Shown here in pieces: positions 32,876 to 64,000 of a stretch of 64,000 nt of DNA. The position numbers and the translations under genes were made by a program. The DNA comes from Candidatus Poriferihabitaceae bacterium. GTDB lineage: Bacteria > Pseudomonadota > Gammaproteobacteria > Arenicellales > Poriferihabitantaceae. Under the pieces are notes generated by a model. It was given only the letters and a program-made list of their open reading frames with translations, searched no databases and had not been told where the DNA came from. Position 1 is the first letter of the stretch; every line of letters begins with the position of its first letter. The DNA lies in NCBI GenBank assembly GCA_965213885.1, contig OZ243919.1, positions 154,668-218,667 of the forward strand. The letters are read 5' to 3'.

Positions 32876-34033
32876 TCATTGCATCCCGGGTTTCCCCTTC
32901 CCGTCCCGCCCCTGCATCCTCGCCAGTTGCGCCGCCGCCCCCCTTGAGGCCAGGAGACGCTCCCCGTAGCGGCTCACCATCGCCGCACTCTTCCACCGAC
33001 CCGCCTGCAGGATCGCGGGCAGGCCGATCCCCGAGGCAATCATGTCCTGGGCCGCACCCACCCGGGCACTGTGGCCCGACAGGCCCCCGGCGAAGTCCAC
33101 GAACCCCGCCCGCATGGCCATGGACTTGTAGATCCGGGAGACCTGGCTCGGGTCCAGTCCGTCCCCCGGGACGCCGTTCTTCCGCACCGCCCGGAACAGG
33201 GGACCCCGGGTGATCCCGCTGCCCGCGAGCCATGTCTGTACCATGTCCGCCGTATCCCGGGCGAGGAACAGGATGGTGCCGGCCCCCTCGGGATCGGTCT
33301 TGGCGCTCCCGAGGAACAGGGTCGCGGTTCCGCCCGGTTCGAACATCAGGTCGGAGACCTGCAGGCAGACGAGTTCCGAGCGCCGGAGCATGGCGTCGTA
33401 GGCCACGGCGAGGAGGGCCCGGTTGCGGCGGTCGATCAGGCGCTCTCCGGGGGATTTGATGAGTTTCTCCCGGACCTGCCAGGTCAGGCCGAGGGCCTGT
33501 GTCTGTCTTCTGCCCCGGTGTCGGTACATGCGCCGCAGTGCCATCCGGACGGTGACATGGTCGAGGGGATTCTTCCATCCTGCGGCCCGGTGGAGGGCGC
33601 AGAGGCTGGAGAGGTAGCGCCGGACGGTGGCGGGTGCCCTGGAGTGTGCCTTGGTGTCGATGAAGCGGACGAGGGAGGCGGCCCGTGCGGGCCATGGTTT
33701 TCTCTTTTCCTTGCGGCACCATGCGAGCCAGATGGCGAGGTCGGACCTAAGGGCGCGTTCGGTGTTGTGGCTGATGGCGCCGTGGGAGGAGTCGAGCCAC
33801 TGGGCCACCGGGTCGAGGGCGTGTTCGGGGATGCGCAGGAGTGGGGGTGATGAGGATGGGGGAGATGATGGACAAGATGGAGAAGATGGAGAAAGCCGAC
33901 TTTCATCGGCATGTTCCACGTCCGCTCCCGCGGTTGTCGGTATGGTTTCTTCGGATGTTTGCAGAGACTCTTTCATGGGGTTTTTCCTGTTGGTTTTATG
34001 AGGGACAGAGGACTTTGTGCGCGATACATACAT
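32876..34033 (-). CDS. Tyrosine site-specific recombinase (phage-integrase family)
   Basis: SAM-like N-domain (ALRSDLAIWLAWC..TVRRYLSSL..H) and catalytic domain with ..AVAYDAMLRRSEL.., GHSARVGAAQDM (HxxR), GRWKSAAMVSRY (W..Y). A Ser/Pro-rich low-complexity N-terminus makes the start uncertain (34033 or 33976). Confidence 0.85.
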   Translation of the reverse strand: MYVSRTKSSVPHKTNRKNPMKESLQTSEETIPTTAGADVEHADESRLSPSSPSCPSSPPSSSPPLLRIPEHALDPVAQWLDSSHGAISHNTERALRSDLAIWLAWCRKEKRKPWPARAASLVRFIDTKAHSRAPATVRRYLSSLCALHRAAGWKNPLDHVTVRMALRRMYRHRGRRQTQALGLTWQVREKLIKSPGERLIDRRNRALLAVAYDAMLRRSELVCLQVSDLMFEPGGTATLFLGSAKTDPEGAGTILFLARDTADMVQTWLAGSGITRGPLFRAVRKNGVPGDGLDPSQVSRIYKSMAMRAGFVDFAGGLSGHSARVGAAQDMIASGIGLPAILQAGRWKSAAMVSRYGERLLASRGAAAQLARMQGRDGKGKPGMQ

Positions 34034-34098
34034 TTATCGTGTGCAACAGGGGCCAGGTCCCGACTCAACCCTTCAACAACTTTGTGAGAAACATCGAA

Positions 34099-35910: not shown

Positions 35911-36096
35911 TGATTTGAATCATATTCAGGATTGCAGTAACCAAACCGACAGCTTCGGCATACATCATCGGATGGACGAAAACGGATCATAGCCAGGTAA
36001 AACCGGGAGCCGCTGTGCCGTGACATCTGTCTTGACGCAGTTATCCGGGATTGCCCATGACCCGGCAAGTCACTTCCTCGGCATGCCATAGCCGAG
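35911..36096. repeat. Direct repeat copy 2 (186 bp)
   Basis: See copy 1. On the minus strand it begins with the last codons (..LGYGMPRK-stop, stop at 36070-36072) of the decayed gene upstream of it. Confidence 0.85.
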
Positions 36097-47127: not shown

Positions 47128-47610
47128 ATGAAAGGGAATGAAACAGTCATCAAGCACCTGAACAGGGTTCTGAAAAATGAACTGACGGCCATCAACCAGT
47201 ATTTCCTCCATGCGCGGATGCTGAAGGACTGGGGCCTGGTCGCCCTGGGTGAGCATGAATACCATGAATCCGTTGACGAGATGAAACACGCCGATGGGCT
47301 CATCGAACGGATTCTTTTTCTGGAAGGTCTGCCGAATCTGCAGGATCTCGGGAAACTCATGATCGGCCAGAATACCCGGGAGATTCTGGAATGCGACCTG
47401 AAAATGGAGATGAAGGCGCACCCGGATTTACAGGCAGCGATTGCGGACTGTGAATCCGTCGGGGATTATGTTTCCCGGGCGCTGTTCGCATCCATCCTGG
47501 AATCCGAAGAAGAGCATATCGACTGGCTGGAAACCCAGTTGGAACTGATCGACCGGGTTGGGCCTGAAAATTATCAGCAGTCACAGATGGCAGCCACCCC
47601 GGAAGCCTGA
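47128..47610 (+). CDS. bfr: Bacterioferritin
   Basis: [66 protein letters not shown]: ferroxidase-centre residues and the heme-ligand Met context. Confidence 0.95.
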
Positions 47611-48142: not shown

Positions 48143-48382
48143 ATGTACGTCTGCATCTGCAAATCCGTTAGCAACCACGAGATCGAGAACGCCGTGGAAC
48201 GGGGAGATGTCACCTCCCTGGCGTGCTTGCGCAGGTGTCTGGGCGTCGGTACGGGATGTGGTATCTGCCTGGAGTCCGCAAAGGAGTGCCTCACCGATGC
48301 GCTCGCACGCAACCTGCCTGGTGATGCGATGGCGCAATATGAATCCCTGGCGGAATTCAGGGTCTCAGCGACTCCGGCCTGA
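48143..48382 (+). CDS. bfd: Bacterioferritin-associated ferredoxin ([2Fe-2S] BFD-like)
   Basis: MYVCICKSVSNHEI...GVGTGCGICL: the C-x-C...C-x2-C pattern of Bfd. Confidence 0.85.
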   Translation: MYVCICKSVSNHEIENAVERGDVTSLACLRRCLGVGTGCGICLESAKECLTDALARNLPGDAMAQYESLAEFRVSATPA

Positions 48383-48558: not shown

Positions 48559-49017
48559 GTGCCCCCCACTCCTGAAGAAAAGGCCGAAGGATTTACCGGT
48601 GACCTGCACAAGGCCGGACTGAAGACAACGTTGCCGAGACTGAAGGTTCTCTCGGTCCTGGAAGCAAGCGATAACCGGCACATGTCCGCGGAGGATGTGT
48701 ATCGCGAGGTCCTGAAGGACAGTGACCCCGTCGGTCTCGCCACCGTCTACCGCGTATTGGCCCAGTTCGTGGAAGCCGGGCTGGTGGTCCGGCACCAGTT
48801 CGAGGGAGACAAATCGGTTTTCGAACTGAATGACGCTGCGCATCATGATCATATGGTCTGTATGAAATGCGGCCTTGTGATCGAATTCGTGAATCGGGAG
48901 ATTGAGTCACTACAGCAGCAGGTGGCGGAAAGTCATGATTTCGACCTGCAGGATCACTCATTGACGCTGTATGGACTGTGCAGCAATTGCCGCGAGTCCC
49001 CCCGGTTGTCCAGATGA
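48559..49017 (+). CDS. fur: Ferric uptake regulator
   Basis: GLKTTLPRLKVLSVLE..HMSAEDVY..ATVYRVLAQFVEAGLV, HHDHMVCMKCG..., LYGLCSNC. GTG start; the N-terminal extension is uncertain. Confidence 0.9.
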   Translation: MPPTPEEKAEGFTGDLHKAGLKTTLPRLKVLSVLEASDNRHMSAEDVYREVLKDSDPVGLATVYRVLAQFVEAGLVVRHQFEGDKSVFELNDAAHHDHMVCMKCGLVIEFVNREIESLQQQVAESHDFDLQDHSLTLYGLCSNCRESPRLSR

Positions 49018-49355: not shown

Positions 49356-49790
49356 TCAGGGGTTTCGATGTCCAACATCCATCACCGGGAGCCTGAAACG
49401 GAGATTCTCTTCGATCCCGACCATGGTCGATCGCTCCGCCGGGGCAAATTCACGCAACCGGTCAATGACATCCTCGACCATGTCCTCCGGCGCCGAGGCG
49501 CCGGAAGTCTGCCCGACAGAGACTACATCTTCGAACCATTCCTTCTCGATGGCGTCAACATGTCTACCAGATCGCCCGGAGTTCCGGCTTCGGCTCCCGA
49601 TTTCTCGAAGCCGGTTGCAGTTGGAACGGTTGTGTGCTCCGACCACCAGGATGAGGTCGACGATCGCAGTCAGCTTGCGAACCGCAGCCTGGCGATTCTG
49701 CGTGGCATAACAGATGTCCGTTTCCAACGGAAAGTGCGCCTGACGCGGGAGAAATTCCCCGATGGGGGCCTGGGGTAAAATCCGGCACCT
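49356..49790 (-). pseudogene. ispH: Fragment of ispH/lytB (HMBPP reductase), C-terminal ~45% only
   Basis: ..TDICYATQNRQAAVRKL..VDLILVVGAHNRSNCNRL..IEKEWFEDVVSVGQTSGASAPEDMVEDVIDRL is colinear with the E. coli IspH C-terminal part (DICYATTNRQEAV..VVGSKNSSNSNRL..VGVTAGASAPD). The N-terminal half, with two of the three cluster cysteines, is absent. Confidence 0.65.
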
Positions 49791-50295
49791 CCGGCAACGG
49801 GAGATCCGGAAAACCAGCCTGTACGTCATCCCCCCCCGGGGTAAAGGTATTCCACGGCCCTCCGAATACCGTTCCTTTACTGAAGAATTGATCTACAGCC
49901 CGATTCCCTTAGTCCTAGTGTTTGGTAGGGAGTTCCGATTAGAATATCTCTTGTCTGGCTGTTCCGGGGGGATTCAGGTTGATTGAAGTGGCTGTCACCG
50001 GACTGACGTATTGGCTGTTGTGGAGCAGGCTGGCACCGTCTGGTGCAACCTTGTCGGGCGAGAGTGCATCCTCGCACCGATGACGGAAGGATATTTCAGC
50101 GAGATGCCGACTATTCGATACGCAAACCGGACCGGTCATTCACCACTCCGTCGAAACCCTCATTTCCAGGCATCAGTCCTGTCGGTAACCCCGACAGGCG
50201 CTACATACCAGCTACGATCAGGCGTTACTTCCCGGAAATTCCCGATACCAGAACGATAAAATCCAATCATTCAAATTCCCCAATCAGGATCCTGG

Positions 50296-50457
50296 ATGAC
50301 CTCTAGAGCGAGTACATCTTCCGGTTCTTCGGCGCCACCCGTTCTCGTTACCGGCTCAGCCGGGCATGTGGGCGCCAATCTCGTTCGCCGACTGTTCGCC
50401 GATGGAACCAGGGTACGGGTGTTGCTGAGGCACGAGGACAACAACGAGGCACTGGAT
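50296..50457 (+). pseudogene. N-terminal fragment of an NAD(P)-dependent epimerase/dehydratase-type SDR, joined to the CYP51 remnant
   Basis: PPVLVTGSAGHVGANLVRRLFADGTRVRVLLRH: Rossmann TGxxGxxG start only (~50 codons). After it the sequence switches to CYP51 homology in another frame. Confidence 0.45.
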
Positions 50458-51171
50458 GGTGTTCACGGTCCCCATCTTTGGACGTGGCGTGGCCTACGAC
50501 GTCACGTCCGAGCTCATGGCCGAGCAACTGGGTTTTCTGTATCCGGCGCTTCGCGAATCCGCAATGTGCAGGGTTGCCCATCATGCTCGAGGAGCGCGCC
50601 CGGTTTGCCGACAACCTGGGTGAACAGGGAATTGTCGATCTGCCACGCGATGAATGAACTGACCGTCAAGATCGCCAGCCGGTGCCTCATCGGAGGGGAA
50701 GTCCGGGAACGGGTGGACTCGGATTTTGCCGATGCCGACCACGAACTGCAAAACGGCATCAACACCCTGGGCTTCTTTCTCCCCAGGCTTCCAACCCCTG
50801 CGCACCGTTCCCGTGACCGGGCCCGGCAGGAAGTGGCCGAGCTCTTCAGCGAGGTCATGGCCGAACGTCGGTGCTCCGGAGTCCAGGCCGATGATTTCAT
50901 GCAGACCCTCATGCGCGCCCGGTACAAGGATGGCAGGGCGTTGCGCGACGAAGAGATTACCGGCATCCTGCTGACGGTGCTGTTCGCGGGCCAGTACACG
51001 AGTGCCGTGCTCGCAACCTGGACCGTGCTTCTCGACCGGTTCGATTTTCAGATCGACACCGCATCTCCCGCGCCGAGCTATGGCAGCTGGGTCACCGGCC
51101 CACGGGAACCGTGCAGGCTCCGTTACCGCCGGCACTCACTCACGGGTGTATTTCGAAGAACGGTCTCATGA
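50458..51171 (+). pseudogene. cyp51: Sterol 14-alpha-demethylase (CYP51) remnant: 5'-truncated, frameshifted, internally deleted
   Basis: Segments in different frames read FTVPIFGRGVAYDV..ELMAEQLGFL / PIMLEERARFADNLGEQGIVDL / NELTVKIASRCLIGGEVRE..FADADHELQNGIN..FFLPRLPTPAHRSRDRARQEV..DFMQTLMRARYKDGRALRDEEITGILLTVLFAGQYTSAVLATWTVLL. The sequence then jumps directly to DRFDFQID..PAPSYGSWVTGPREPCRLRYRR. This is colinear with M. tuberculosis CYP51 as recalled (PIFGEGVVFD.., ELTIYTSSACLIGKKFR.., FAGHHTSS.., EYEFEM..PACVRYRRR). About 170 residues, including the Cys heme-ligand loop, are missing. Confidence 0.7.
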
Positions 51172-54100
51172 CCCGGCGCTACGACGTTGTCATCGTTGGA
51201 GCGGGGCCGGTCGGCAGTTTGTGCGCGCTTGCCCATGCACGGAAAGGGGCCAGGGTGGCCTTGCTCGAAGCGAATCCCAAGGCCGCCCAAAGGCTGGCGG
51301 GCGAATGGCTGCATCCCCCCGCCGTGAGAATACTGCGCGACCTCGGGGTTGAAATCGATGTGCAGACCCGGAAACCGACGGGTAAGGGGTTTGCGATATT
51401 TCCGGAAGATCACACGGAGCCGATCGTCTTTCCTTATCCGGACGGGACCCGCGGATTGACATTCGAGCACGCCTCTCTCGTCTCAAGCCTACATGAGGCG
51501 GTAGAAAACAACCCGAATATTGAACTGCTTCTTCAGGCCCGGGTGCATACGGTTGAGGACGGCCAGGTCATCTATTCACGCAACGGCAACGATGAAGCCC
51601 TGACAGTCCCCCGGGTCATCGGCGCCGACGGCCAGGCTTCCGTCGTCCGCAAATCGCTGGGTCTGTCGATCAGCCCGTTGATCTCCTCGTGGACGGTCGG
51701 GCTCCTGTTGACCGGGGTGAAGCTGCCACTCGAGGGGTATGGCCATGTGCTGCTTGGCGGTCCGGGCCCAATGCTGATTTACCGCCTGGGCGAGCATCAT
51801 GTCAGGCTGATCGTCGATGTCCCGCTGAACCACACGGCACCCAGGGATCGGATCGGATTCCTGCTGGACTCGTATACCGATTTGTTGCCGGAATCGCTCC
51901 GATCCGCGTTTGTGGAGGCCCTGCGGGTGAGGAACTTCCAGGTTGCGGCGAACAAGCTGAGACCGCACGCCACCTACGGAAGTTCGCATCGCGTGCTGAT
52001 TGGCGATGCTGCCGGGCACTATCATCCGATGACGGCGATGGGAATGACCTTCGGTTTCGGCGATGCGCTCTCGCTGGCCGAGTGCGGGGATTTTCGCGAA
52101 TTCACCGCCAGTCGCTTCCGGGCGACCCGGACCCCTTCGTTTCTCGCGATGGGCCTGTACGAGGTCTTTGCCGATCATCGGTTCGAGGCGGTGGCGGTCC
52201 GGCACGCGATTTACCGCAGCGCCCGGGCAAATCCCGCATTCCGCGACCGCACCGTGCGTTTTCTCGCCTGTGAAGACACCTCCGCGGTCCGCATAGGTAT
52301 CGCCGCTTTCGGAACGGTGGCCCGCGCGGTTTCCGGGCAGATTCCGCGATCCCATGACCGGCTTGCCTGGCGCAAGGCCCGAGACGTCAATCAGGCCCTT
52401 GCCGTCCGTCTCGGATGGCTGTTGCGAAGCATCTGGCAACTGTACAGGGCGAGAAGCCATACAGGGGAGATTGACGGACGGACCTGGAGCGCATTGGCAG
52501 GCGTGTTTCCGAACTCCATGCCGCAGAAAGTCCGCGGCTCCCGGCCCAGCCGCCCGCAGGCGGGCGCTTCGATTGACGCATATCCGGCATTGCAGAGTGC
52601 GACCAGGCGCCTCTTGGATCTGCAGGGTGAGGACGGGGACTGGGAAGGGGAAATGGTCTGGTGTCCCATGCTCACGGCGCAATACGTGCTGCTGCATCAC
52701 ATCATCGAAAAGCCGCTCGAGCCCGGCCGGCGACTGCGCGTGCTGCGCTCGTTCGCACAAACCCGCCACGAGGATGGCTTGTGGGGCATGCATGAACACT
52801 CGCAACCCCATCTGTTCGTCACCACGCTGGTGTACGTCGCGGCCAGACTGCTCGGTCTCCAGCGAAATGATCCGATGCTCGGGCCGGCCCGTCGTTTCCT
52901 GCAGGCAGAGGGGGTTCTCGGTATTCCGAGTTGGGGGAAGTTCTGGCTGGCGCTGCTGAATCTCTATGACTGGCGCGGTGTCAACGCCATTCTTCCGGAG
53001 TTGTGGACTTTGCCGCGATGGGTCGCGATTCATCCCTCGAACTGGTACTGCCATACCCGGCTCATCTACATGGCGATGTCGGCGATCTACCCGCAACGGT
53101 TCCAGGCATCCGTGACCCCCGTGATCGCGTCGTTAAGGGAGGAACTCTTTCCCCAGGGATTTGCGAATGTCGATTTTTCCACGGCCGGCGGCCGCTTGCG
53201 CGACGATGACCTCTACGCGCCCCCGGGTGTGTGGCTGCGGTCCGGATACAGGTTTGCAAGGCTGTATGAACGATACCACCACAAACGCCTCCGCAGCCGG
53301 TGTCTGGATTCGATCAACCGGCGAATCAAGTGGGAGTTGCAGACCACCGACCACACGAGCATCTCCCCGGTCAGCGGGATCCTCAATATCCTTGCCCTGT
53401 GGTTGCGTGATCCGGACGATTCCGACTGTCACCGGGCGCTGGAGCGGCTGGATGGCTGGATCTGGGAGGACGAGGAACATGGGGCGCGGGTCACCGGTGC
53501 GAGAAGCGCTTCGTGGGATACGGGGTTCGCCCTTCAGGCCCTGGGGACTGTGCCCGATATCGATGGCGTCGAAATCGCCATGTCAGCCGGAGCCGACTTC
53601 CTTCGCCGGCAACAGATCCGTACCAGCTTCGAAGGGTTTCGCGAGGCCTACCGGAATGACCCCAAGGGAGGCTGGTGTTTTGCCGGGGGGTGGCATGGCT
53701 GGCCCGTGACGGACTGTACCGCGGAAGCGGTGCTGGGGCTGACCGCGGTCCAGCGCGAGGACACGGATACCGCAATGCTCGGCGATGCGGTTCGCTTCAT
53801 GATGCGCGGCCAAAACCGCGATGGTGGTTTTGGCAGTTACGAGGCGCGGCGCTCCATGCTTGGCCTCGAATGGCTGAACCCGGCCGAGATGTTTGGCGAC
53901 TCGATGACCGAGCGTTCCTACGTCGAGTGCACCGCGTCCTGTCTGGCAGCCTTTGCCGCCTGCGGGGAGGATCTCCCGAAGACCACCAATCAGGCGGTCA
54001 TGAAGGCGATCGCGCGTGCGGATGCCTGGCTTCGCAGGTCCCAGGCATGCGACGGGTCCTGGCGTGGTGTATGGGGCGTCCAGTTCATCTATGGTACGTT

Positions 54101-54632
54101 TTTCGGGATCCGGGGCCTGCTTGCCGCCGGAGCGCTTCCAGGTGATCCGGCATTGCGCCTGGCCTGCCGGTGGCTGCTGGATCGCCAGCGCAGCGATGGT
54201 GGATGGGGTGAGCATCACAGCGGCTGCCTGTCCGGCCGATACGTCGCGCACGAGGAAAGCCAGGTCATTCAGACGGCTTGGGCCATGATCGCGCTGCTGG
54301 AGGCGGAAGATTCGAACTGGAACGCGATTTCAGAGGGCGCCCGGTTTTTGCTGGACGCACAGCATGCGGATGGGTCCTGGCCCAGGCAGGACATGGCCGG
54401 TGTCTTCTTTCGCACGGCCCTGCTGGATTACGTACTGTACCGGCAGTACTTCCCACTGCATGCGCTCGGTCTCTATGAGCAGCGTCGTCGGGTCAGGCTG
54501 GAACTGACGACTCCCGCCAGTGTGGACGTCGACACGGGAACCGCAGCGGGGGAAGATACTTCGAAGCACTGTACGGGCCGGGCCGTACGTTCGGGGTCAG
54601 CCGCAGCTATGCATCTTGCGAAACAGCGCTAG
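51168..54632 (+). CDS. Fusion protein: squalene monooxygenase (epoxidase)-like flavoprotein plus oxidosqualene cyclase
   Basis: N-terminal half: YDVVIVGAGPVGS, GEWLHPPAVRILRDLG, IGADGQASVVRKSL, LIGDAAGHYHPMTAMGMTFGFGDA. C-terminal half: SWGKFWLALLNLYDWRGVN, HPSNWYCHTRLIYMAMS, SASWDTGFALQAL, GGWHGWPVTDCTAEA, QNRDGGFGSYE, YVECTASCL, QACDGSWRGVWGVQFIYGT, QRSDGGWGEH, QHADGSWPRQDMAGVF. The frame is uninterrupted. The ATG at 51168 overlaps the stop of the CYP51 remnant (ATGA). Confidence 0.85.
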   Translation: MTRRYDVVIVGAGPVGSLCALAHARKGARVALLEANPKAAQRLAGEWLHPPAVRILRDLGVEIDVQTRKPTGKGFAIFPEDHTEPIVFPYPDGTRGLTFEHASLVSSLHEAVENNPNIELLLQARVHTVEDGQVIYSRNGNDEALTVPRVIGADGQASVVRKSLGLSISPLISSWTVGLLLTGVKLPLEGYGHVLLGGPGPMLIYRLGEHHVRLIVDVPLNHTAPRDRIGFLLDSYTDLLPESLRSAFVEALRVRNFQVAANKLRPHATYGSSHRVLIGDAAGHYHPMTAMGMTFGFGDALSLAECGDFREFTASRFRATRTPSFLAMGLYEVFADHRFEAVAVRHAIYRSARANPAFRDRTVRFLACEDTSAVRIGIAAFGTVARAVSGQIPRSHDRLAWRKARDVNQALAVRLGWLLRSIWQLYRARSHTGEIDGRTWSALAGVFPNSMPQKVRGSRPSRPQAGASIDAYPALQSATRRLLDLQGEDGDWEGEMVWCPMLTAQYVLLHHIIEKPLEPGRRLRVLRSFAQTRHEDGLWGMHEHSQPHLFVTTLVYVAARLLGLQRNDPMLGPARRFLQAEGVLGIPSWGKFWLALLNLYDWRGVNAILPELWTLPRWVAIHPSNWYCHTRLIYMAMSAIYPQRFQASVTPVIASLREELFPQGFANVDFSTAGGRLRDDDLYAPPGVWLRSGYRFARLYERYHHKRLRSRCLDSINRRIKWELQTTDHTSISPVSGILNILALWLRDPDDSDCHRALERLDGWIWEDEEHGARVTGARSASWDTGFALQALGTVPDIDGVEIAMSAGADFLRRQQIRTSFEGFREAYRNDPKGGWCFAGGWHGWPVTDCTAEAVLGLTAVQREDTDTAMLGDAVRFMMRGQNRDGGFGSYEARRSMLGLEWLNPAEMFGDSMTERSYVECTASCLAAFAACGEDLPKTTNQAVMKAIARADAWLRRSQACDGSWRGVWGVQFIYGTFFGIRGLLAAGALPGDPALRLACRWLLDRQRSDGGWGEHHSGCLSGRYVAHEESQVIQTAWAMIALLEAEDSNWNAISEGARFLLDAQHADGSWPRQDMAGVFFRTALLDYVLYRQYFPLHALGLYEQRRRVRLELTTPASVDVDTGTAAGEDTSKHCTGRAVRSGSAAAMHLAKQR

Positions 54633-55665
54633 CCGAAGTTTCGGGCCGGGCGCCATTCCCTTCTTCCTCAGTTTCCCGGGCACCGGGTTTGCGGGCCAGG
54701 AAGAAAAACATGGGCGCGAAAACACCGGACTCGCCACCTTCGACCAGGGAATCCGCCCCTGATTCAACAACCTGCTGATCTCGGCGGTGCCTTTCGGAAC
54801 CACTCGCACCCTCTCGGCGACCCGCAACACCAGATTGGTCAGGAACCGGCCCGCCGGTGTGCGCGGCATGCCTGAAAGACTGAAATCACGACCCTGCAAT
54901 GCCCGGTACCAGGGCGTTTCCGGGTCCGACTCGGCGGCAACGTCGCGACCCTCCAGGAGTTCGAACCCGGCCGCGCGAAGTGCATCGCAGACCTCCGACG
55001 TGCCGGCGATATCCGGCAGTCCGTTGCCTGTTTCAATTTCCTTCTTGATCCGCAGATGCGCTTCGTTCTGCGGATCAAAGTGTTCCGTAAGACACCACTC
55101 GTAGGGCGCAGGACGCGGAAGATCTCCCCGCATGCGGCTGTCTTGTCCGGTGCGTGGGGCATGGACTCGATGGCGATGGTGCTGTCATAGCAGCCATCGT
55201 CTTCGGGTATCTGCATGTAGTCGCCGTGAATGAATCCGCACAATGACTGGATGTCCCGGGTGTGCAGCCTGGCGCGTTCGATCTGGTAGGCGTTATTGTT
55301 GATCCCGACGAATCCGGCCCCGGAATCACGGGCCAGGTTGGACATCGGTCCCCCGACTCCGCAACCCACGTCCAGCACCCGCATCCCCGGCCCGAGGGAC
55401 AACCGGTCAGCAAGATACTTCTGGTGCCTGAGAAGCGAAGCCTTCAGGTTCTCGCCCCGCCGCCGGGGGGCAAAGTGAAAGGACCGGCCCCAGCCAAATT
55501 CGTAGAAATCGGTTGCCAGGTCGCAGTAGTGATTGACGAGCATCACATGGCGTTCCTTATCTTCGCTCCGGCATCGTGAAGTTCTGTGTATTGGGCGACC
55601 ACGGAGTTCACTTCATCCGGGGCGATGTCTCCAAGGGACCGGGACTCCGGCTGCTTGACGGGTCC
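54608..55665 (-). pseudogene. Sterol C-24 methyltransferase (ERG6/SMT-like), multiply frameshifted
   Basis: Colinear pieces lie in different minus frames: DEVNSVVAQYTELHDAG / EDKERHVMLVNHYCDLATDFYEFGWGRSFHFAP..LDVGCGVGGP..GINNNAYQIERA..AIESMPHAPDK..GEIFRVLRP / YEWCLTEHFDPQNEAHLRIKKEIETGNGLPDI..PWYRAL.. / ADSLVEGGESGVFAPMFFFLARKPG. At least 3 frame changes. The 3' end overlaps the cyclase 3' end convergently. Confidence 0.7.
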
Positions 55666-56137
55666 ATGGGGTGATCGATTGTCTTGCGTGGTTCCCACGA
55701 TTTCATAAACCTGTGTTCGATTCCCGGAAAATTTCTACGGTATCTGGCTGATATGACAATATCAATTTCCCGGAGTCTTCCAGGGGAGGTGAACCTGAAG
55801 GCTGCAGTGTCGAATCATAGGGAATCGACGGGGAAATTGCATGCCGGACAGGATGGGATTCGGGCATCTTCGTCCGGGCCTCACGCTTCGAGATCGAACC
55901 CGGACACCGGGAACAGCAGAATCACTGCAAAGGACTATCCGAGAGTATCCAGTCACATGCCCGAACACCGCACTGATCAGGCACTTCCCGAACAGGAGGC
56001 AGGACATGCCCGCCTGACGATCTCTGCGGGACTGTTCGTGACGCTGTTCATCGTGACCGCGTCTCTTGCCTGTATCGGCACCCGCACCCGCACCCGCTAT
56101 TTTGCCTTTGGGAACCTGGACCGGTGTTTGCGTGCGT

Positions 56138-56872
56138 TCAGGGCAGGCTCAGTCGTGTCATCCGCCCACCGTCGACGGTATACACTTGTCCGGTAATGAA
56201 CCCGGCCTCATCAGCGGCAAGAAAGGCGACGAGGCTTGCCACTTCTTCCGGCGTTCCGGTCCGTCCGACCGGGTGGACCCGGCCGATGCCCTGTCGAAAC
56301 GCGGACGGATCAGGCATTGTGTCGATAAAAGCGAGGTTCAGTTCGGTGTCGATCCAACCGGGTGCCACGGCATTGCAACGCACGCCATCCTTTCCATGAT
56401 CGACGGCGACCGCACGGGTCAGACCATGCAGCCCGGCCTTGGTCGCACAATAGGCTGCGTGGTTCGGGTTCGATCCCAGTCCCTCGATCGAGCCGGTATT
56501 GACGATGCTGCCCTGGGTCTTCCGTAAGTGCGGAAGGGCGGCCTTGATCATCAGGAACGGTGCTGTGAGGTTCACCGCGATGTTGCGGGTCCAGTCCTCG
56601 ACGCTCATGTCCTCGATGCCTGCTTCCTGCATCATACCGGCGTTGTTCACCAGCACGTTCAGTTGCCCGGTGCGAGCGACGACATCGGCAATGACGCGCT
56701 CGGGCGTTCCGGGGTCGGACAGGTCCGCCTCAATCCCCTCGAAATCATCGTCAGACCCCCGCTGCGCCGTGAACACCCGGGCACCTTCGTCCCGGAGGCG
56801 CTTGGCAATGGCGCGACCGATACCTGACCGGCCCCCAGTCACGAGCGCGACTTTCCCCTCGAAACGCTTCAT
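56138..56872 (-). CDS. Short-chain dehydrogenase/reductase
   Basis: KVALVTGGRSGIGRAIA, NNAG, S..YCATKAG (YxxxK). I placed the start at the ATG overlapping the upstream stop (ATGA); the track start is 56914. Confidence 0.85.
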   Translation of the reverse strand: MKRFEGKVALVTGGRSGIGRAIAKRLRDEGARVFTAQRGSDDDFEGIEADLSDPGTPERVIADVVARTGQLNVLVNNAGMMQEAGIEDMSVEDWTRNIAVNLTAPFLMIKAALPHLRKTQGSIVNTGSIEGLGSNPNHAAYCATKAGLHGLTRAVAVDHGKDGVRCNAVAPGWIDTELNLAFIDTMPDPSAFRQGIGRVHPVGRTGTPEEVASLVAFLAADEAGFITGQVYTVDGGRMTRLSLP

Positions 56873-57603
56873 GACACGGGCTTTCCGCCGTTCACCTCGA
56901 CCAGGGCGCCGCACATGTACCGGGACGCATCGGACGCCAGAAAAAGAACGACATCGGTAATGTCCTCGGGTTCGGCGATGCGTCCGATGGGTACAGTCTT
57001 GCCCAGTTCCAGAACCGCCGTGTCCGGGTCATAGCCTCGCTTGGCAAAGCCAGTGCGCAACATCGGTGTGTTAACCTCGTTCGGGCAGACCGCGTTGATG
57101 CGGATACCCTGATGGGCGTGATCCATGCCCATGCACTGGGTCAAAGCGGCAATCGCCGCCTTGGTCATACAATAAAGCGCATGATCAGGTCCGGGGGCTT
57201 TGCCACCCCAGCACGATGCGGTGTTCACGATCACGCCGCCCCCTGCGTCGGCCATAAGAGGGATTGCCGCGCGGCAAATCCGGAACGGTGCCGCGACGTT
57301 GACACCAAGCGACAGATCCCAGTCGGCATCGGCTGTATCAGTCACCTTGCCGCGGGTGATGACCCCGGCGTTATTGATCACGATGTCGAGCCCGCCCAAT
57401 GCCTTGACCGCAGCCTGCGGCAAACCATCGGCATAAGCGGGGTCGAGCAGGTCGCCGGGCAGATGCGCGTTAGCCTCGATCCCATCGACAATGCGGTCTG
57501 CAGCTGCCACGTGTGCACCCTGCGCACGCAGGGCTTTGACAAGTGCACCGCCGATACCGCCAGCGGCCCCGGTCACCAGAGCTTTTTTTCCATCAAAGCT
57601 CAT
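56869..57603 (-). CDS. Short-chain dehydrogenase/reductase
   Basis: KKALVTGAAGGIGGALV, NNAG, YCMTKAA. Confidence 0.85.
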   Translation of the reverse strand: MSFDGKKALVTGAAGGIGGALVKALRAQGAHVAAADRIVDGIEANAHLPGDLLDPAYADGLPQAAVKALGGLDIVINNAGVITRGKVTDTADADWDLSLGVNVAAPFRICRAAIPLMADAGGGVIVNTASCWGGKAPGPDHALYCMTKAAIAALTQCMGMDHAHQGIRINAVCPNEVNTPMLRTGFAKRGYDPDTAVLELGKTVPIGRIAEPEDITDVVLFLASDASRYMCGALVEVNGGKPVS

Positions 57604-57615
57604 TTTTCTTCGTTT

Positions 57616-58767
57616 TCAAAAACTTGCGATCGGGTCGCCAAACAGTGTTACGTCCGGAACCACGCCAAGCCCCGGCCCCTCTGGCAGCGCGATATGGCCG
57701 CCTTCGATCCGAATGCTGTTTTGGGCGTCGTAGTGTCCGTCGATATAGGGCGCGGCCAGCCACGCCCCTTCGCATAGCTCGGGGCGGGTGGTAGCCGCAA
57801 CATGGGTGCAGGCCGCCGCGATGACGTCACCGCCCCACGCATCATCACACGTGTGGGGCAGGTTCCGCGCCTCGCAGATATCACGGAAGGTGCGCATGTG
57901 TTGCAGCCCGCCAATGCGCGTTACTTTCATGCCAAACCCGTCGACGAGATTGGTGCCGACCGCACTAAGGACGGTGTTCAGATCCACGCTGTTTTCGTCC
58001 ATGTAGATCGCATGGGCAATCTGCGGGCGGATCTTGCGCAGGTCCTCGACGGTATTGCACGGTTGTTCCATGATAAAGGGGACATCGGGGCATTCCCGGC
58101 TGACGCGCAGCGCATCGCGCGTGGTCCATCCCCGATTTCCGTCGATGGCCAACCGGATGCCGGAACCTCGGATATTCTCCCAGACCTTGCGGATCGTCTC
58201 AATATCAATTTCAACCGGGCGACCGCCCAACTTGATCTGGAGGCGTGGGTACCCTTCAGCGCCCTTTTGTTGGGCCAGTCGAGCAATGTCGTCAGGTGCA
58301 CCAACACCGACCGCGTAATACGACGGCACACGTTCCGTAACGGCTCCCCCAAGCAAATCCGCCACACGGACGCCCAGCTTCTTGCCCAAAAGGTCATGAG
58401 CGGCGATGTCAATCGCGGCTTTCGCGTAGTTGTGTCCATTAAGGCGCGCGTTCATCCGCTGATGTAGGATTACTGGCCAAAGCTCCGCCCCGATCAACCC
58501 TGGCGCAATCTTGGCCAGCGCGGCCAGCGCGCCTGCCGCATGCGCTTCTGCATAGGTGGAGCCGACCGGACAGGTTTCGCCCCAGCCTTCAGTCCCATCC
58601 TCGGCCACCAGACGCACCAACGTCGTGTCGAGCGTCCAGACATTGGCATTGGCCATCACATAGGGGCCATTCTTAACCGGCAAGTCGTGTCGGTAGATGT
58701 GCATCTCGCGGATACGCATCGACCTTCGGTGGGCTGTTTTAGCCTCGCTTGGCTTAGGTTGGTTCAT
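57616..58767 (-). CDS. Enolase-superfamily enzyme (mandelate racemase / muconate lactonizing family)
   Basis: Capping domain (..[15 protein letters not shown]..), [14 protein letters not shown], barrel metal-ligand contexts (..LAIDGNRGW.., ..IMEQP.., ..IYMDE..). An alternative start lies at 58719. Confidence 0.8.
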
Positions 58768-59093
58768 GTCAGGCCCTCTGTGTCCAAAGTTGCGCGGGGT
58801 GCTTCCAGGGCAGCGGTCTTCGCGTCCGACGGGGTTTGCAGACGGGCCATGTCTGTCATTCCTTCGTGCAAGAGAAAAGGGTCTGAGCGATGTGACGGGT
58901 ATCCCTGTCGGGTGAGATGCGCTCTAAATAGACGCGGAACTCATTCGCCTTCACCGGTACGAAACGGGGGGGAGCATGAAGGCTTCCCGGGCCGGACCCG
59001 GTCTTCTCCGCCGGGCGCGAAACACCGGGGCTCCTTCGCGCGAGTAAGGCTTGCCGCATCACCTGTTACTGATTCCGGCAATGTTCCTGGCGT

Positions 59094-59939
59094 TCATCGG
59101 GTGACTGACTCCCGGTCCAGTGCCTCGAGGAACTTGTCCTGTTCGTTGGGGCGCATGGCGATGCACTGCTCCGGATAGGGAAACCGCTTGCCGGTCACCT
59201 CGGTGTGAAACGCCTTCAGCGCGGCGACGCGCTCCTCGTGCATTTGCCTGTGCAGCCGGCCGAGGTCGCCGAACGGATGGGCATGCCTGGGCGGTGTTTC
59301 CTCCTCGCTGGCTTCCCCGCAGATGTCCGCCACGAACAGGAATACCGCGTCCCCGGCATGACCGGAACCAAGCGAGAAGGTCACGATGGAAGTCCGGTTG
59401 TTGACCGCCTGCAGCACCTCCTCGGCAATACACTCGACCTCCACAGCGAATACCCCGACGTCTTCCATGCGCTTGAGTGTACGGTAGATCTCCATGGCTT
59501 CATCGGCGGTCCGTCCCCAGGCCCGCAACCCGCCACACCAGTGGCTGAACGTCGGGATCAGGCCGATGTGGCTGTGTACCGGGATGCCTTCCTTCGCCAG
59601 CATCTCGAGGATGTCGTAGGAGCGCAGGGTGTAGTACATGTCCGCCCCCTTTTCCATCCGGTCCAGGGCGTTCGCCAGGATTTCGTCCGCTGTCGCATAC
59701 TGTGCCCAGGTCATTCCGGTACCCATGAAATGCGTTGGTGCAATCCTGCGGGCTTCCTCCACCTGGCTGTCCCAGATGACAAAAAGGTCAATCCCGGCCT
59801 CGACGCAGGCCCTGATCTCGGTCGCATCCTTCGGGTTGGTCATGCTGAGCCGCTCTCCCGAGCCCTTCAGCGCCTGCAGGTCGGCAACCGTGTAGTTGCG
59901 ATTTGCCGGCCTGCGGCCAAAATCGTAGATTCTCTTCAT
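59094..59939 (-). CDS. PanB-like (3-methyl-2-oxobutanoate hydroxymethyltransferase family / PEP-mutase-superfamily) protein
   Basis: Distant but colinear with PanB: ..HIGLIPT..GG.RAWGR.., AVEVECIAEEV.., VTFSLGSGHAGDAVFLFVADICG, ..FHTEVTGKRFPYPEQ. Confidence 0.55.
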   Translation of the reverse strand: MKRIYDFGRRPANRNYTVADLQALKGSGERLSMTNPKDATEIRACVEAGIDLFVIWDSQVEEARRIAPTHFMGTGMTWAQYATADEILANALDRMEKGADMYYTLRSYDILEMLAKEGIPVHSHIGLIPTFSHWCGGLRAWGRTADEAMEIYRTLKRMEDVGVFAVEVECIAEEVLQAVNNRTSIVTFSLGSGHAGDAVFLFVADICGEASEEETPPRHAHPFGDLGRLHRQMHEERVAALKAFHTEVTGKRFPYPEQCIAMRPNEQDKFLEALDRESVTR

Positions 59940-60016
59940 GGCGGTATTCCGGATTCAGGTGGACAGTCCGGCCAATATTCGACAAATCCAGCCGGGTGTC
60001 TATCAGGGCCGCGACA

Positions 60017-62302
60017 TCAATCCGTGGTTACGGGACTCCCTTCGCCGTTCGGGGCGAGATCGACAAGGCAACTGTGTGCGCTGCAGCCCTGGCCCAGCCG
60101 TGAAGTGCCCGCATCCCGGGTCAGCACATTTGGATTGCCTTGGGTATCGGTTCCATCGTCGTCGGGATCGAACCAGCTCCCGGTGGACAATGCGACCACG
60201 CCGGGCATGATATCCCCGCTGACCACCGCCCGAGCAAGACAGATGCCACGGGCGTTGTAGAGCTTCACCGGGTCTCCATGGCGGATGCCGCGGGCATCGG
60301 CATCGACCGGGTTGACCGTCACCGGCGCCGGGCGCTCCCCCGGCAGGTCGGCGATGGCGCATTCGAGTTGGCTGTGAAGCTTGTCCCCGGGCTGGGGTGA
60401 GACCAGATGCAACGGATACCGCCCGATGTTGCCGCGCCATTCTTCCGGTGGCATCCAGGTCGGATGGCCGGGGCAGTCGTCGTAACCGAATCCGTCGATG
60501 GTCTCGGAAAAGATCTCGATTCTCCCCGAGGGCGTGTCCAGCGGCGCCTCCTCGGGATCCTTCCTGAATGCGGCGAACGGTGTCAGGGCATGTTCCGGTC
60601 CCCGTACCGGCAGATCGATCCAGTTGCTCGACCTGAGTTCCTCCAGGTCAGGCACTTCGATTCCCCGTGCGGCATTGTATTCCCGGAACTGCCGGTAGAG
60701 GTGGTCGATCCAGTCACTGCTGTCCCGGCCTTCGGTGAATTGCTCGCCAAATCCCAGGCGGGCGGCGAGGTCGCTGAAAATATCGTAGTCGTTCCGTGCC
60801 TCCCCCACGGGCCCGATCATTCCCGGCATGTGAATCAGGTAGGAGTCCCCCCGGGCCCAGCCGATGTCCTCCCGTTCCCACGGGGTCGTCGCAGGGAACA
60901 CGATGTCCGCCCGTTTTGCGGTAGCGGTCCACCATGGCTCGTGCACGATGACGGTTTCGGGGCACTGCCAGGCCCGGTGAAGCCGGTGAAGATCCTGGTG
61001 ATGGTGAAAAGGGTTGCCGCCGCACCAGTACACCAGGCGGATGTCGGGATAGGTCAGATGCCTGCCGTTGAAATCGAACGGCATCCCGGGATTGAGCAGC
61101 ATGTCCGCGATGCGGGCCACCGGTATCGCGGTGCCGACCGGATTGCGGCCCTGGGGGAAGGTGAGGCCGTCCATGCGCCGGACCGAGACGCCGATGCCGC
61201 CGATGGCGCCGTAACCGTAACCGACGCCGCCCCCCGGAAGCCCGATCTGCCCCAGCATCGCGGCCAGTACCGCAGCCATCCAGTAGGGCTGTTCGCCGTG
61301 TTCCGCGCGCTGCAGCGCCCAGGACACGGTGATCAGGGTTCGCTCCCGGGCCATGTCCCGAGCCAGTTGGCGGATTCGTTCCGCGTGGATGCCGGTGAGA
61401 CTCCCGGCCCATTCCGGTGTCTTGGGCCGGCCATCGGACTCCCCCGTGAGGTAGGCCCTGAACCGCGGATAGCCCGTGGTGCAACGTGCCAGGAAATGCC
61501 GGTCAAGCAGTTCCTCGGTCTCCAGCACGTAGGCCAGTGCGAGCATGAGCGCGGTGTCGCTTCCGGGGACTACGGGCACCCATTCCGCCCCGTCCGGTGC
61601 GTCTGTCCTCTGGGGTGCGATGTTGATCCGTCTGATCCCCCTGCAGGCGAACTCGTCGAACCAGGTCCGGGTTTCGTGATGCGTCACGCCGCCCATGCTG
61701 ACCTGGGAGTTTTTCGGGTTGATTCCGCCGAACATCACCAGCAGGCGGGTATGTTCCGCGATGGTCGGCCAGGCGTTCTGATTGCCCCAGAAGAGCTTCA
61801 GGAAGTTCATGCCGAATACATGGGGTATGATGGCCTGGGCGGCGGCGGTGCTGTAACTCGCGACCGATGCCACATACCCGCCGGCGCAGTTGAGAAAGCG
61901 GTGGACCTGTCCCAGCGCATGGTGAAAGCGCCCGGCGCTTGCCCAGCCGTAGGAACCGCCGAAGATGGACTCGTTGCCGTGACGCCTGCGCACCCGGTCG
62001 ATCTCCCGGGCGGCAATGTCCAGCGCCTCGTCCCAGGGCAGTTCCACGAACGTGTCCTCCCCCCTCGGGGCATCGCGAAGCCCGGCCTGTCCCGGCCCGT
62101 GTTCAAGCCATCCACGGCGAACAGATGGCTTCCGGACACGCTTGCGGTGATGCACCGCGGCCGGCAGGATACCGGAGATCGACGATGGACACGGGTCGTT
62201 TTCGAATGGAGCCACGGCGGCAATGCGGCCGTTCTGTGTGGTAACCCGGAAGGCACCCCAGTGACTGGAGGTGACACGCGTGACTGAATGGTTCTTGCTC
62301 AT
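60017..62302 (-). CDS. Cytoplasmic molybdopterin oxidoreductase, BisC/TorZ-like S-/N-oxide reductase family
   Basis: No Tat signal. N-terminus ..SSHWGAFRVTTQNGRIAAVAPFENDP..VRKPSVRRGWLE resembles the BisC N-terminus. 761 aa with a C-terminal beta-barrel (..VTVNPVDADARGIRHGDPVKLYNARG). Confidence 0.8.
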   Translation of the reverse strand: MSKNHSVTRVTSSHWGAFRVTTQNGRIAAVAPFENDPCPSSISGILPAAVHHRKRVRKPSVRRGWLEHGPGQAGLRDAPRGEDTFVELPWDEALDIAAREIDRVRRRHGNESIFGGSYGWASAGRFHHALGQVHRFLNCAGGYVASVASYSTAAAQAIIPHVFGMNFLKLFWGNQNAWPTIAEHTRLLVMFGGINPKNSQVSMGGVTHHETRTWFDEFACRGIRRINIAPQRTDAPDGAEWVPVVPGSDTALMLALAYVLETEELLDRHFLARCTTGYPRFRAYLTGESDGRPKTPEWAGSLTGIHAERIRQLARDMARERTLITVSWALQRAEHGEQPYWMAAVLAAMLGQIGLPGGGVGYGYGAIGGIGVSVRRMDGLTFPQGRNPVGTAIPVARIADMLLNPGMPFDFNGRHLTYPDIRLVYWCGGNPFHHHQDLHRLHRAWQCPETVIVHEPWWTATAKRADIVFPATTPWEREDIGWARGDSYLIHMPGMIGPVGEARNDYDIFSDLAARLGFGEQFTEGRDSSDWIDHLYRQFREYNAARGIEVPDLEELRSSNWIDLPVRGPEHALTPFAAFRKDPEEAPLDTPSGRIEIFSETIDGFGYDDCPGHPTWMPPEEWRGNIGRYPLHLVSPQPGDKLHSQLECAIADLPGERPAPVTVNPVDADARGIRHGDPVKLYNARGICLARAVVSGDIMPGVVALSTGSWFDPDDDGTDTQGNPNVLTRDAGTSRLGQGCSAHSCLVDLAPNGEGSPVTTD

Positions 62303-62303
62303 G

Positions 62304-63461
62304 TCAATAGGACCGCGGCATGCCGAGTACGTGCTCGGAAATATAGCTCAGGATCAGGTTGGTGGAGACGGGCGCCACCTGGTACAGGCGTGCCTCCCGG
62401 AACTTGCGCTCGATGTCGTATTCCTCGGCAAAGCCGAACCCGCCATGGGTCTGCACGCAGGCTTCGGCGGCTGCCCAGGATGCATCGGCGCAGAGCATCT
62501 TCGCCAGGTTGGCTTCCTCCCCGGGGTTCTCACCCAGGTCATACAGCCGGACGGCCTCCCGCAGCACCAGCTCCGCCGCCCGCATGCCGGCATAGGCCTG
62601 GGCGATGGGAAACTGGATGCCCTGGTTCTGGCCGATGGGACGTCCGAAGACCCTACGTTCGCAGGCATAGGCCGTGGCCCTGTCGATGAACCACTTGGCG
62701 TCGCCGACACATTCCGCCGCAATCAGCATGCGCTCGGCGTTCATGCCTGAAAGGATGTAGCGGAACCCCCGGCCTTCCTCGCCCACCAGGGCGGAACGCG
62801 GCACCGGCATGTTGTCGAAGAACATCTCCGTGGTGGCATGATTCATCATGGTGCGTATGGGGCGTATGGTCAGTGTCCCGTCAGGGACATCCCGCATGTC
62901 CACCAGCAGCACCGAGAGCCCTTCGGTGCGTTTCCCGACCTGATCCAGCGGCGTTGTCCGGCACAGCAGCAACAGCAGGTCGGAATGCGCCGCCCGCGAG
63001 GTCCAGATCTTCTGTCCGTTAACGATGTAGTGGCCGTCTTCCAGACGCGCAGAGGTGCGAAGAGCTGCGGTGTCGGTGCCGCTGGTGGGTTCGGTGACGC
63101 CGAATGCCTGCAGCCTGAGCGAACCCTCGGCGATACTCGGCAGGTACCGGGATTTCTGGTCCCGGGATCCGTGCCTAAGAACCGTACCCATGGTGTACAT
63201 CTGGGCATGGCAGGCGGCGGCATTGCAGCCTGAGCGATGAATCTCCTCCAGGATGGCCGCCGCGGCGGCAATGGGAAGCTCCGCCCCGCCGTATTCTTCC
63301 GGAATCAGCACGGACAGGTAGCCGGCCTCCGTCAGGGCCCGGACGAATTCCTCCGGATACGCCTGTTCCCGGTCGCACCGCCGCCAGTATTCGCCGGGGA
63401 ACCGGGTACAGAGTTTGCGTACCTCGGTGCGGATTTCCGGGTAGTCAGGTGCGTAGTCCAT
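62304..63461 (-). CDS. Acyl-CoA dehydrogenase
   Basis: ..FGVTEPTSGTDT.., YIVNGQKIWTS, C-terminal ..QTHGGFGFAEEYDIERKFREARLYQVAP... Confidence 0.9.
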   Translation of the reverse strand: MDYAPDYPEIRTEVRKLCTRFPGEYWRRCDREQAYPEEFVRALTEAGYLSVLIPEEYGGAELPIAAAAAILEEIHRSGCNAAACHAQMYTMGTVLRHGSRDQKSRYLPSIAEGSLRLQAFGVTEPTSGTDTAALRTSARLEDGHYIVNGQKIWTSRAAHSDLLLLLCRTTPLDQVGKRTEGLSVLLVDMRDVPDGTLTIRPIRTMMNHATTEMFFDNMPVPRSALVGEEGRGFRYILSGMNAERMLIAAECVGDAKWFIDRATAYACERRVFGRPIGQNQGIQFPIAQAYAGMRAAELVLREAVRLYDLGENPGEEANLAKMLCADASWAAAEACVQTHGGFGFAEEYDIERKFREARLYQVAPVSTNLILSYISEHVLGMPRSY

Positions 63462-63658
63462 GGGCAGTTGCCAGGCGGTTGACCGGCTGCCGCATCTCCC
63501 GGAGGGCTGTCAGCCAGCCCGCGGAAGGGTGATCGGGCGCGGCGGCCGCGGATTTGGCGACTTTACCAGCCCCAAGACCCCTGATCCATGCCCCCATGCC
63601 CCGGCGGTGCCGGGCGGGCAGGGGCGGTTGCCTGGCCGCAGCCGTCAGCCGTCAGCCG

Positions 63659-64000
63659 TCAGTCGCCGACCGCGTGGTCCCGGGGTTCCCGGTCCAGGGA
63701 CAGCAGGTGGTCCATGCGCCGTTTCTTCGTCTGCAGGTAGCGTTCGTTTTCCGGGTGAACCGTGCTTTCGACGTGGACCCGTTCCAGCACGGTGATACCC
63801 TCCGCCTCCAGCGCCCGGATCTTGAGTGGATTGTTGGTCATGAGACGGATCGATCTGACGCCGAGGTCTTCCAGTATCCTTGCGGCAAGGGAGTATTCCC
63901 TCTCGTCGGGCTGATGGCCCAGCAGGATATTGGCGTCCACCGTGTCATGTCCGTCGTCCTGCAGGTTGTAGGCTTCCATCTTCCTGGACAGGCCGATGCC
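63659..64000 (-). CDS. ribA: GTP cyclohydrolase II, 5' part beyond the window
   Basis: ..DTVDANILLGHQPDEREYSLAARILEDLGVRSIRLMTNNPLKIRALEAEGITVLERV..PENERYLQTKKRRMDHLL matches the RibA C-terminus. The frame is open to the window edge. Confidence 0.8.
   Translation of the reverse strand, partial: GIGLSRKMEAYNLQDDGHDTVDANILLGHQPDEREYSLAARILEDLGVRSIRLMTNNPLKIRALEAEGITVLERVHVESTVHPENERYLQTKKRRMDHLLSLDREPRDHAVGD

Follow-up and report, generated by a model that had tools for sequence, protein, structure and literature searches.

Can sterol cyclisation be held by selection after the rest of a sterol pathway has gone, or is a sterol locus with a single unbroken gene simply on its way to being lost? 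The question is raised by a 64,000-nt stretch of contig OZ243919.1 from a Candidatus Poriferihabitaceae bacterium (hereafter the window; the source genome measures 3.56 Mb, and its gene content was surveyed here across these 64 kb), in which a fused squalene epoxidase/oxidosqualene cyclase gene (hereafter the fusion) stands at 51168-54632 on the forward strand among broken neighbours. Our analysis identifies the locus as a degenerate, vertically inherited copy of the sterol cluster known from sponge symbionts, and its bearer would accordingly be a gammaproteobacterial sponge symbiont. We favour, with moderate confidence, the reading that the fusion has been kept under selection while the rest of the pathway decayed, so that the locus would now be protosterol-only.

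The fusion gene and the remnants around it

The window was compared with 80 loci from species-representative genomes, which were picked by similarity to the fusion, a gene with several hundred relatives. Their fusion proteins are 63-86% identical to that of the window, and nearly all of the loci come from metagenome-assembled genomes (MAGs) of sponge-associated or sponge-named lineages. The groups that carry fusion loci number at least eight, including Candidatus Poriferihabitaceae, Porisulfidus, Nitrospirales, Binatia, Alphaproteobacteria, Bryobacterales, Opitutales, and Rhodothermales. The closest relatives are two loci of one species, L001 and L002 (fusion 86% and 85% identical, respectively). 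Breakpoints were placed by blastn against L001, L002, L003, and L004, reading frames were followed by tblastn, and domains were assigned with Pfam.

The fusion comprises 3,465 nt (1,154 aa) without interruption, as the earlier note on this DNA had stated, and its alignment with L001 is gap-free over 1,152 aa. Its N-terminal third matches the Pfam families SE (PF08491, 1.6e-22) and FAD_binding_3 (2e-21), with the epoxidase domain at ~51180-52082 and the GxGxxG motif for binding of flavin adenine dinucleotide present as VVIVGAGPVGS, while its C-terminal two thirds carry SQHop_cyclase_N/C domains (1e-51 and 2e-49; cyclase domain ~52593-54479). Its best PDB matches are 1W6K, human lanosterol synthase (E = 7e-129), and 6C6N, human squalene monooxygenase (2e-29). 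A residue alignment to 1W6K shows that the catalytic Asp is kept (VTDCTAE), as are the equivalents of H232, Y503, and C533 (YCHTR, GSYEAR, and YVECTAS). By these features the fusion looks functional and is predicted to be so.

In L001, L002, and the 80 loci, the canonical order places sdmB, sdmA, erg24, cyp51, and the fusion on one strand and the sterol C-24 methyltransferase (SMT) gene downstream on the opposite strand. In L001 and L002, these genes encode (i) an sdmB-like short-chain dehydrogenase/reductase (SDR), (ii) an sdmA-like Rieske oxygenase, (iii) an ERG4/ERG24-family reductase, (iv) a CYP51 P450, (v) the fusion, and (vi) the SMT. Intact copies were found at 71 of the 80 loci for sdmB, 73 for sdmA, 74 each for erg24 and cyp51, and 54-57 for SMT. 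Unlike this canonical cluster, the window holds no intact tailoring gene. Its remnants are collinear with L001 and L002 in the canonical order and orientation (window 51018-55731 is collinear with L001 at 87% identity), and sdmA and erg24 are represented by a deletion only. The four neighbours that the earlier note listed as fragments or pseudogenes (ispH', SDR', cyp51', and smt') are all broken, and the damage proved larger than it had described, extending to the complete deletion of sdmA and erg24 and to the truncation of a further, EBP-like gene.

The chromosomal site is shared with L001. Synteny with L001 ends at 56085, restarts at 59014, and continues to the window end at ~90% nucleotide identity through a right flank (59014-64000) that contains a PanB-like gene, a molybdopterin oxidoreductase gene, and others. 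Synonymous divergence (dS) from L001 amounts to 0.24-0.29 in flank genes and 0.27-0.38 in the cluster. Because these values are similar and the flank is syntenic, the cluster has been inherited vertically at this site and the losses fell on the window's own lineage. L001 is itself disrupted by insertions, its sdmB lying in three pieces (L001:1010-5673) separated by two insertions, one of which encodes a protein with DruA-domain and DDE transposase regions (3356-5383); sdmB of L002 is intact.

The syntenic block starts at 49913 with the native upstream intergenic region (49913-50295, forward strand; GC content 0.53), which is 82% identical in nucleotides to L001 305-688 and L002 2197-2537. These 383 bp directly precede sdmB in the relatives, and they presumably hold the operon promoter. 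The remnant sdmB' (50296-50460, forward; the SDR' of the earlier note), from a gene for C-4 demethylation, retains its own ATG and 55 codons only, matches Pfam Epimerase positions 1-35, and aligns with L002 sdmB 2538-2720. It ends at the junction of a 3,445-bp deletion (50460/50461), through which L002 2721-6165 are lost, a span that takes in the remainder of sdmB, the whole of both sdmA (Rieske) and erg24, and cyp51 codons 1-150. The breakpoints of this deletion are clean, and they are identical against all four relatives (L001-L004).

What remains of cyp51 falls into two parts. Remnant A (50461-51025, forward; ~aa 151-342) is 91% identical to L002, passes through tblastn frames 2, 3, and 1, and contains two 2-bp deletions, one after 50579 and the other after 50644; its helix-I signature AGQHTS reads AGQYTS (H to Y), and Y245 is D. 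A second large deletion, of 423 bp (junction 51018-51025), is in frame (141 codons) and removes aa 343-477, including the haem-binding FGGGKHRCMG loop with the haem Cys; its junction coincides with the short direct repeat CTGGACCG, a position that slippage would produce. Remnant B (51026-51171, forward) then covers aa 478-529 and ends with the native TGA, whose overlap with the ATG of the fusion reads ATGA. With aa 1-150 and 343-477 deleted, two frameshifts, and an altered AGQHTS signature, a complete CYP51 P450 fold is no longer encoded.

On the other side of the fusion, the SMT pseudogene smt' (54664-55692, reverse) runs through tblastn frames -2, -1, -3, and -2. Relative to L001 it has indels of -5 (55568/55567), +1 (55559), -19 (55105/55104), and -1 (54757/54756), which produce three frame changes, and its domains are spread over two overlapping open reading frames (ORFs), the methyltransferase domain on one and Sterol_MT_C on the other (Pfam). 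Beyond it lies the EBP-like' remnant (55957-56121, forward), consisting of the first ~50 codons, with the remainder replaced; a tblastn search of the window with the product of L001 14790-15692 gave a match limited to residues 1-107. The parent EBP-like protein is a membrane protein of ~244 aa whose gene adjoins SMT in at least 34 of the 80 loci (for example, L012:15263-15997 and L001:14790-15692, both forward), and it has 635 database homologues, all named "hypothetical", and no Pfam domain. An AlphaFold2 model of it (pLDDT 80, pTM 0.78) returned human EBP as the top two Foldseek matches in the PDB, the sole structural neighbours of note (probability 1.00 and 0.99, TM score 0.45-0.54, with weak E values of 0.03 and 0.2). 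On this modelled fold, the EBP-like proteins may be an unannotated bacterial family of sterol isomerases (delta8-delta7).

Could all of these breaks be sequencing or assembly artefacts that conceal an intact cluster? The assembly is of the metagenome type, and the six small indels include two of one base (+1 and -1), which would suit such an artefact. Deletions of 3,445, 423, 19, 5, 2, and 2 bp, however, are atypical as read errors, the -5 and -19 changes in smt' are not homopolymer errors, and the position of the 423-bp deletion at a direct repeat resembles that of real slippage deletions. Moreover, invariant residues have been substituted in the remnants. Elsewhere in the window, ~45 other genes are uninterrupted and without frameshifts, among them ORFs of 856, 854, 782, and 761 aa (710-856 aa for the long ones overall) and genes for GroEL, GlyQ/GlyS, ClpB, PEP synthase, GlmU, and a 761-aa molybdopterin oxidoreductase. 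Since these genes are intact and multi-bp deletions are unlike read errors, sequencing error is excluded as the cause; the decay is real and asymmetric, and an intact cluster behind an artefact is very improbable. Genome-wide erosion was likewise rejected as a cause for this window, given its intact housekeeping genes.

Proposed selection on the fusion and the predicted product

At this locus, epoxidation and cyclisation are the only encoded steps left. In the history that we propose, the 3,445-bp deletion would have severed the pathway right after cyclisation, by removing C-4 demethylation (sdmB, sdmA), the C-14 reductase (erg24), and the 5' third of cyp51. The later-acting genes (the cyp51 remnant, smt, and the EBP-like isomerase) would then have been left without substrate and have drifted in a domino effect, while the fusion, probably expressed from the retained upstream region, would have stayed under purifying selection since a protosterol of the lanosterol, parkeol, or cycloartenol type was still useful.

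The case for selection on the fusion rests on the distribution of indels and on invariant residues. Small frame-breaking indels number six in 1.74 kb of remnants and zero in the 3.47-kb fusion, where 11.9 would be expected at the rate of the remnants (Poisson P(0) = 6e-6); under the most conservative treatment, in which the six are placed uniformly, P = 0.0014. Consistent with this, the fusion keeps 259 of the 260 residues that are invariant in the other 80 proteins, with a single L to M change (the homologues range from 0 to 5 changes), whereas the remnants are changed at 8 of 180 such positions (Fisher P = 0.004). Among the remnants, smt' is changed at 6 of 102 near-invariant residues (P = 0.002 for smt' alone) and cyp51' at 2 of 78 invariant residues, including the H to Y change in AGQHTS.

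Several points weigh against this reading. First, the dN/dS ratio (omega), which the earlier note had proposed as a test of the fusion against the pseudogenes, gave no separation: in a three-taxon Nei-Gojobori decomposition with bootstrap (window, L001, L003), omega on the window branch was 0.29 (0.19-0.52) for the fusion, 0.22 (0.11-0.53) for smt', and 0.29 (0.14-0.64) for cyp51'. The upper bound for the fusion, 0.52, lies below 1, and omega provides no positive evidence that the fusion and the pseudogenes have been treated differently. Thus, the suggestion in that note that selection is maintained on cyclisation alone is supported by the indels and the invariant residues but not by omega. 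Second, omega of the fusion is somewhat higher on the window branch than on the L001 branch (0.29 vs 0.16; P = 0.95), which hints at some relaxation. Third, the fusion is intact at all 80 comparison loci, a count that is biased by the choice of loci through the fusion and is not evidence. Fourth, expression of the fusion is a prediction from sequence, and the upstream region gave no match to a sigma-70 consensus, with nothing useful from a promoter and terminator scan. Fifth, all 81 fusion proteins share A/H/V as the product-specificity triad of the cyclase (window residues A778, H843, V847, and D849); lanosterol synthases have T/C/V and cycloartenol synthases Y/H/I, so the triad follows neither pattern, and the protosterol of the whole family is not predictable from sequence. 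As the triad is shared by all 81 proteins, the window enzyme is a typical member of its family. Sixth, tailoring genes elsewhere in the 3.56-Mb genome may overturn the protosterol-only prediction. An early inference that cyp51 died first and smt later was withdrawn, because the omega of 1.06 on which it stood came from MAFFT misplacing the 3' remnant of cyp51', and piecewise realignment gave the 0.29 reported above.

The similar omega values, and the excess over the sister branch, would also be expected if the whole locus were being lost and the fusion, unneeded or unexpressed, had merely not yet been hit. In protein sequence, the remnants have kept 81-92% identity to L001, and pseudogenes that retain the omega of past constraint imply decay that is young compared with the split from L001 (dS ~0.3); rearrangement at both cluster borders fits such a loss as well. 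Against it, the fusion is the largest target, with 3.47 of the 5.2 kb compared, and it has escaped all six small indels and both large deletions (the uniform-placement P of 0.0014 applies here). It also retains 259 of 260 invariant residues, whereas smt' has lost 6 of 102. We therefore regard complete loss in progress as unlikely.

The last of the opposing points belongs to another alternative, in which the fusion is functional and tailoring takes place in trans, in the same genome or elsewhere in the sponge holobiont, so that the final product would not be an unmodified protosterol. Many co-resident symbiont lineages carry sterol clusters, alternative clusters pair the fusion with a GPP34-P450 and an MMPL/sterol-sensing transporter (see below), and in MAGs of sponge symbionts the steroid genes are reported to lie dispersed over the chromosome in many cases (Kelly et al., PMC9531527). 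No other sterol gene was found in the 64-kb window, however, and the 120 database proteins closest to L002 CYP51 (none below 72% identity) include no second CYP51 from the source genome, a weak test by which divergent copies would be missed. Furthermore, a second functional set alone would not account for the decay of smt and the EBP-like gene at this locus. Tailoring in trans is possible, but we think it doubtful. A precedent for a fusion without cyp51, erg24, and sdmAB exists at L046, L050, and L072, and under the selection reading a protosterol-only product is plausible but unproven.

The deletions also left an arrangement upstream of the fusion that bears on its expression. The cyp51 stop and the fusion start overlap by 4 nt (ATGA or GTGA; window 51168-51171) in the majority of 74 related loci, and this conserved overlap implies translational coupling. 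In the window, a chimeric ORF of 291 codons (50296-51171, forward; 291 aa) runs from the sdmB ATG to the native cyp51 stop, with its first ~35 residues matching epimerase/SDR and its middle matching P450 profile positions 139-287 (Pfam). With the 3,445-bp deletion alone, translation would end at ~50623, ~550 nt upstream of the fusion; the frame is regained through the joint effect of the two 2-bp deletions, and the loss of 423 bp leaves it unchanged. The chance of an open leader frame is, by a rough estimate, ~0.04-0.13, and its being open fits selection to keep the fusion expressed, which is suggestive only. On a speculative view of the sequence, the chimeric ORF would be a leader for translational coupling or anti-polarity. 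We tentatively raise, without expecting it to prove correct, the further idea that selection after the large deletion rescued expression of the fusion, with the smaller deletions reopening a meaningless 291-codon leader and thereby restoring coupling and relieving polarity. If so, active remodelling would have turned the lineage into a specialised producer of protosterol, rather than leaving it with a locus that merely decays, and this protosterol might be used in the symbiont's own membrane or pass to other members of the sponge holobiont.

Known sterol clusters and other degraded loci

The clusters of steroid genes (CSGs) described in Ircinia sponge microbiomes (Kelly et al. 2022, PMC9531527) have the same order and orientation as the canonical cluster, namely an SDR ("DFR", equivalent to sdmB), a "hypothetical" gene (equivalent to sdmA), erg24, cyp51, the cyclase, and SMT on the opposite strand, and sterol clusters with fused squalene monooxygenase/oxidosqualene cyclase (SMO/OSC) homologs have also been described (Brown et al. 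2023, PMC10070321). Compared with the CSGs, the window has the fusion alone intact, with sdmA and erg24 deleted and sdmB, cyp51, smt, and the EBP-like gene present as remnants. The published clusters are described as subject to purifying selection, and neither paper mentions pseudogenes (PMC9531527, PMC10070321). The earlier note knew of no description of this pattern for a bacterial sterol locus, which holds in part: there are published accounts of the cluster, of its horizontal spread among sponge symbionts, and of the fused SMO/OSC, and bacteria whose pathway ends at protosterols are known, but a copy in which all post-cyclisation genes are deleted or pseudogenised while the fusion is spared appears to be undescribed. 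The tailoring genes lost in the window are homologues of the Rieske SdmA, SDR SdmB, and CYP51 of Methylococcus capsulatus, in whose sterol pathway SdmA/SdmB carry out C-4 demethylation alongside CYP51 (cited in PMC10070321). In that organism, however, SMO and OSC are encoded by separate genes and the pathway is intact, whereas in the window the two are fused and the pathway is broken.

The end state predicted here, epoxidation and cyclisation with neither demethylation nor side-chain methylation, is that of Gemmata obscuriglobus, which makes lanosterol and parkeol from a squalene monooxygenase plus an oxidosqualene cyclase and is protosterol-only. The two differ in that Gemmata obscuriglobus uses separate enzymes and its short pathway is not known as a decayed one, whereas the window has a fused enzyme with tailoring remnants alongside. 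The locus thus belongs, in degenerate form, to a cluster family already known, and it converges on a minimal pathway that is known as well; it is not a new kind of system.

Within the comparison set, L046, L050, and L072 resemble the window in having an intact SMO-OSC fusion and no cyp51, erg24, or sdmAB within 10 kb, but they carry a different P450 and a transporter, both absent from the window, and canonical remnants occur only in a mixed locus, L065. These loci represent a second cluster type, in which the fusion is accompanied by a 670-aa GPP34 (Golgi phosphoprotein 3-like)-P450 fusion and an MMPL/sterol-sensing-domain transporter (L046:5408-9803, L050:3712-8680, L072:2-3456, and L065:3943-8729). 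L065 looks hybrid, with the second-type genes next to cyp51 and smt fragments; erg24 is absent there. Broken accessory genes beside an intact fusion were also seen at L055 (sdmB split), L069 (cyp51 frameshift), and L056 and L058 (smt as C-terminal fragments only), and sdmA is possibly interrupted at L039. Decay of tailoring genes may thus be recurrent among symbionts, in a sample that is biased to intact fusions.

The locus amounts to a natural knock-out in which C-4 and C-14 demethylation, delta-14 reduction, side-chain methylation, and a putative isomerase are lost and the epoxidase-cyclase is kept, which suggests that the protosterol itself is the selected product in at least some symbionts. 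Sponge-symbiont sterol clusters bear on the debate over a bacterial origin of sponge steranes, such as 24-isopropylcholestane, and in this context a cyclase in a MAG does not imply a capacity for mature or alkylated sterols. Annotation pipelines would call P450-like and methyltransferase ORFs at this locus and could thereby overstate its pathway.

Cluster borders and the surrounding window

Both cluster borders have been rearranged, the left on the ispH' side and the right by a 2.9-kb block. The left border is marked by ispH' (49356-49829, reverse), a 157-aa ORF in which IspH homology is confined to 49386-49730 and corresponds to Escherichia coli residues 191-305, that is, to LYTB profile positions 173-266 of 267 (Pfam) and thus to the C-terminal third. 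The 4Fe-4S cluster ligands of Escherichia coli IspH are C12, C96, and C197, and a tblastn search of the window with the Escherichia coli protein returned no N-terminal half. The earlier note took ispH for a supply gene of the locus. This membership was rejected, as ispH lies near the fusion in only 1 of the 80 related loci (L071), and ispH' falls outside the syntenic block, to the left of its start, with no N-terminal half in the window; it marks a rearrangement at the left border and not a supply gene that the locus has lost. Directly to its left stands an iron-homeostasis trio, all intact, comprising bacterioferritin (47128-47610), a Bfd-like ferredoxin (48143-48382), and Fur (48559-49017), the first and last identified by Pfam and the ferredoxin by eye.

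At the right border, a non-syntenic block (56138-58767, reverse) encodes two classical SDRs and an MR/MLE enolase-superfamily protein (Pfam), and sits in place of the 3' part of the EBP-like gene of the relatives. It was rejected as part of the sterol cluster, being absent from all 80 loci. A search for repeats or insertion sequence ends flanking the locus found none. The AT-richer stretches that the earlier note saw as bounding the gene block are real (GC ~0.53-0.56, compared with 0.625 for the whole window), but they are largely the cluster's own intergenic regions, the right-hand one (55693-56121) consisting of the divergent intergenic region between smt and the EBP-like gene together with the EBP-like remnant.

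In the right flank, the molybdopterin oxidoreductase gene is intact in the window (60017-62302), whereas in L001 it is split by a 2.3-kb insertion (L001:17632-19966). Elsewhere, apparent gaps between window genes hold ordinary genes, either small or of atypical coding, identified by eye from translations (GFA-family, sulfotransferase-like, CDGSH, and Bfd), and no RNA genes were found in the 64 kb. Finally, a 182-nt direct repeat, 92% identical between copies that lie 3.7 kb apart (32214-32395 and 35915-36096), brackets two genes of atypical codon usage and, by eye, a C-terminal fragment resembling a tyrosine recombinase/integrase (32879-33079, reverse, and 33071-35700), and this region is probably the remnant of an integrated element.

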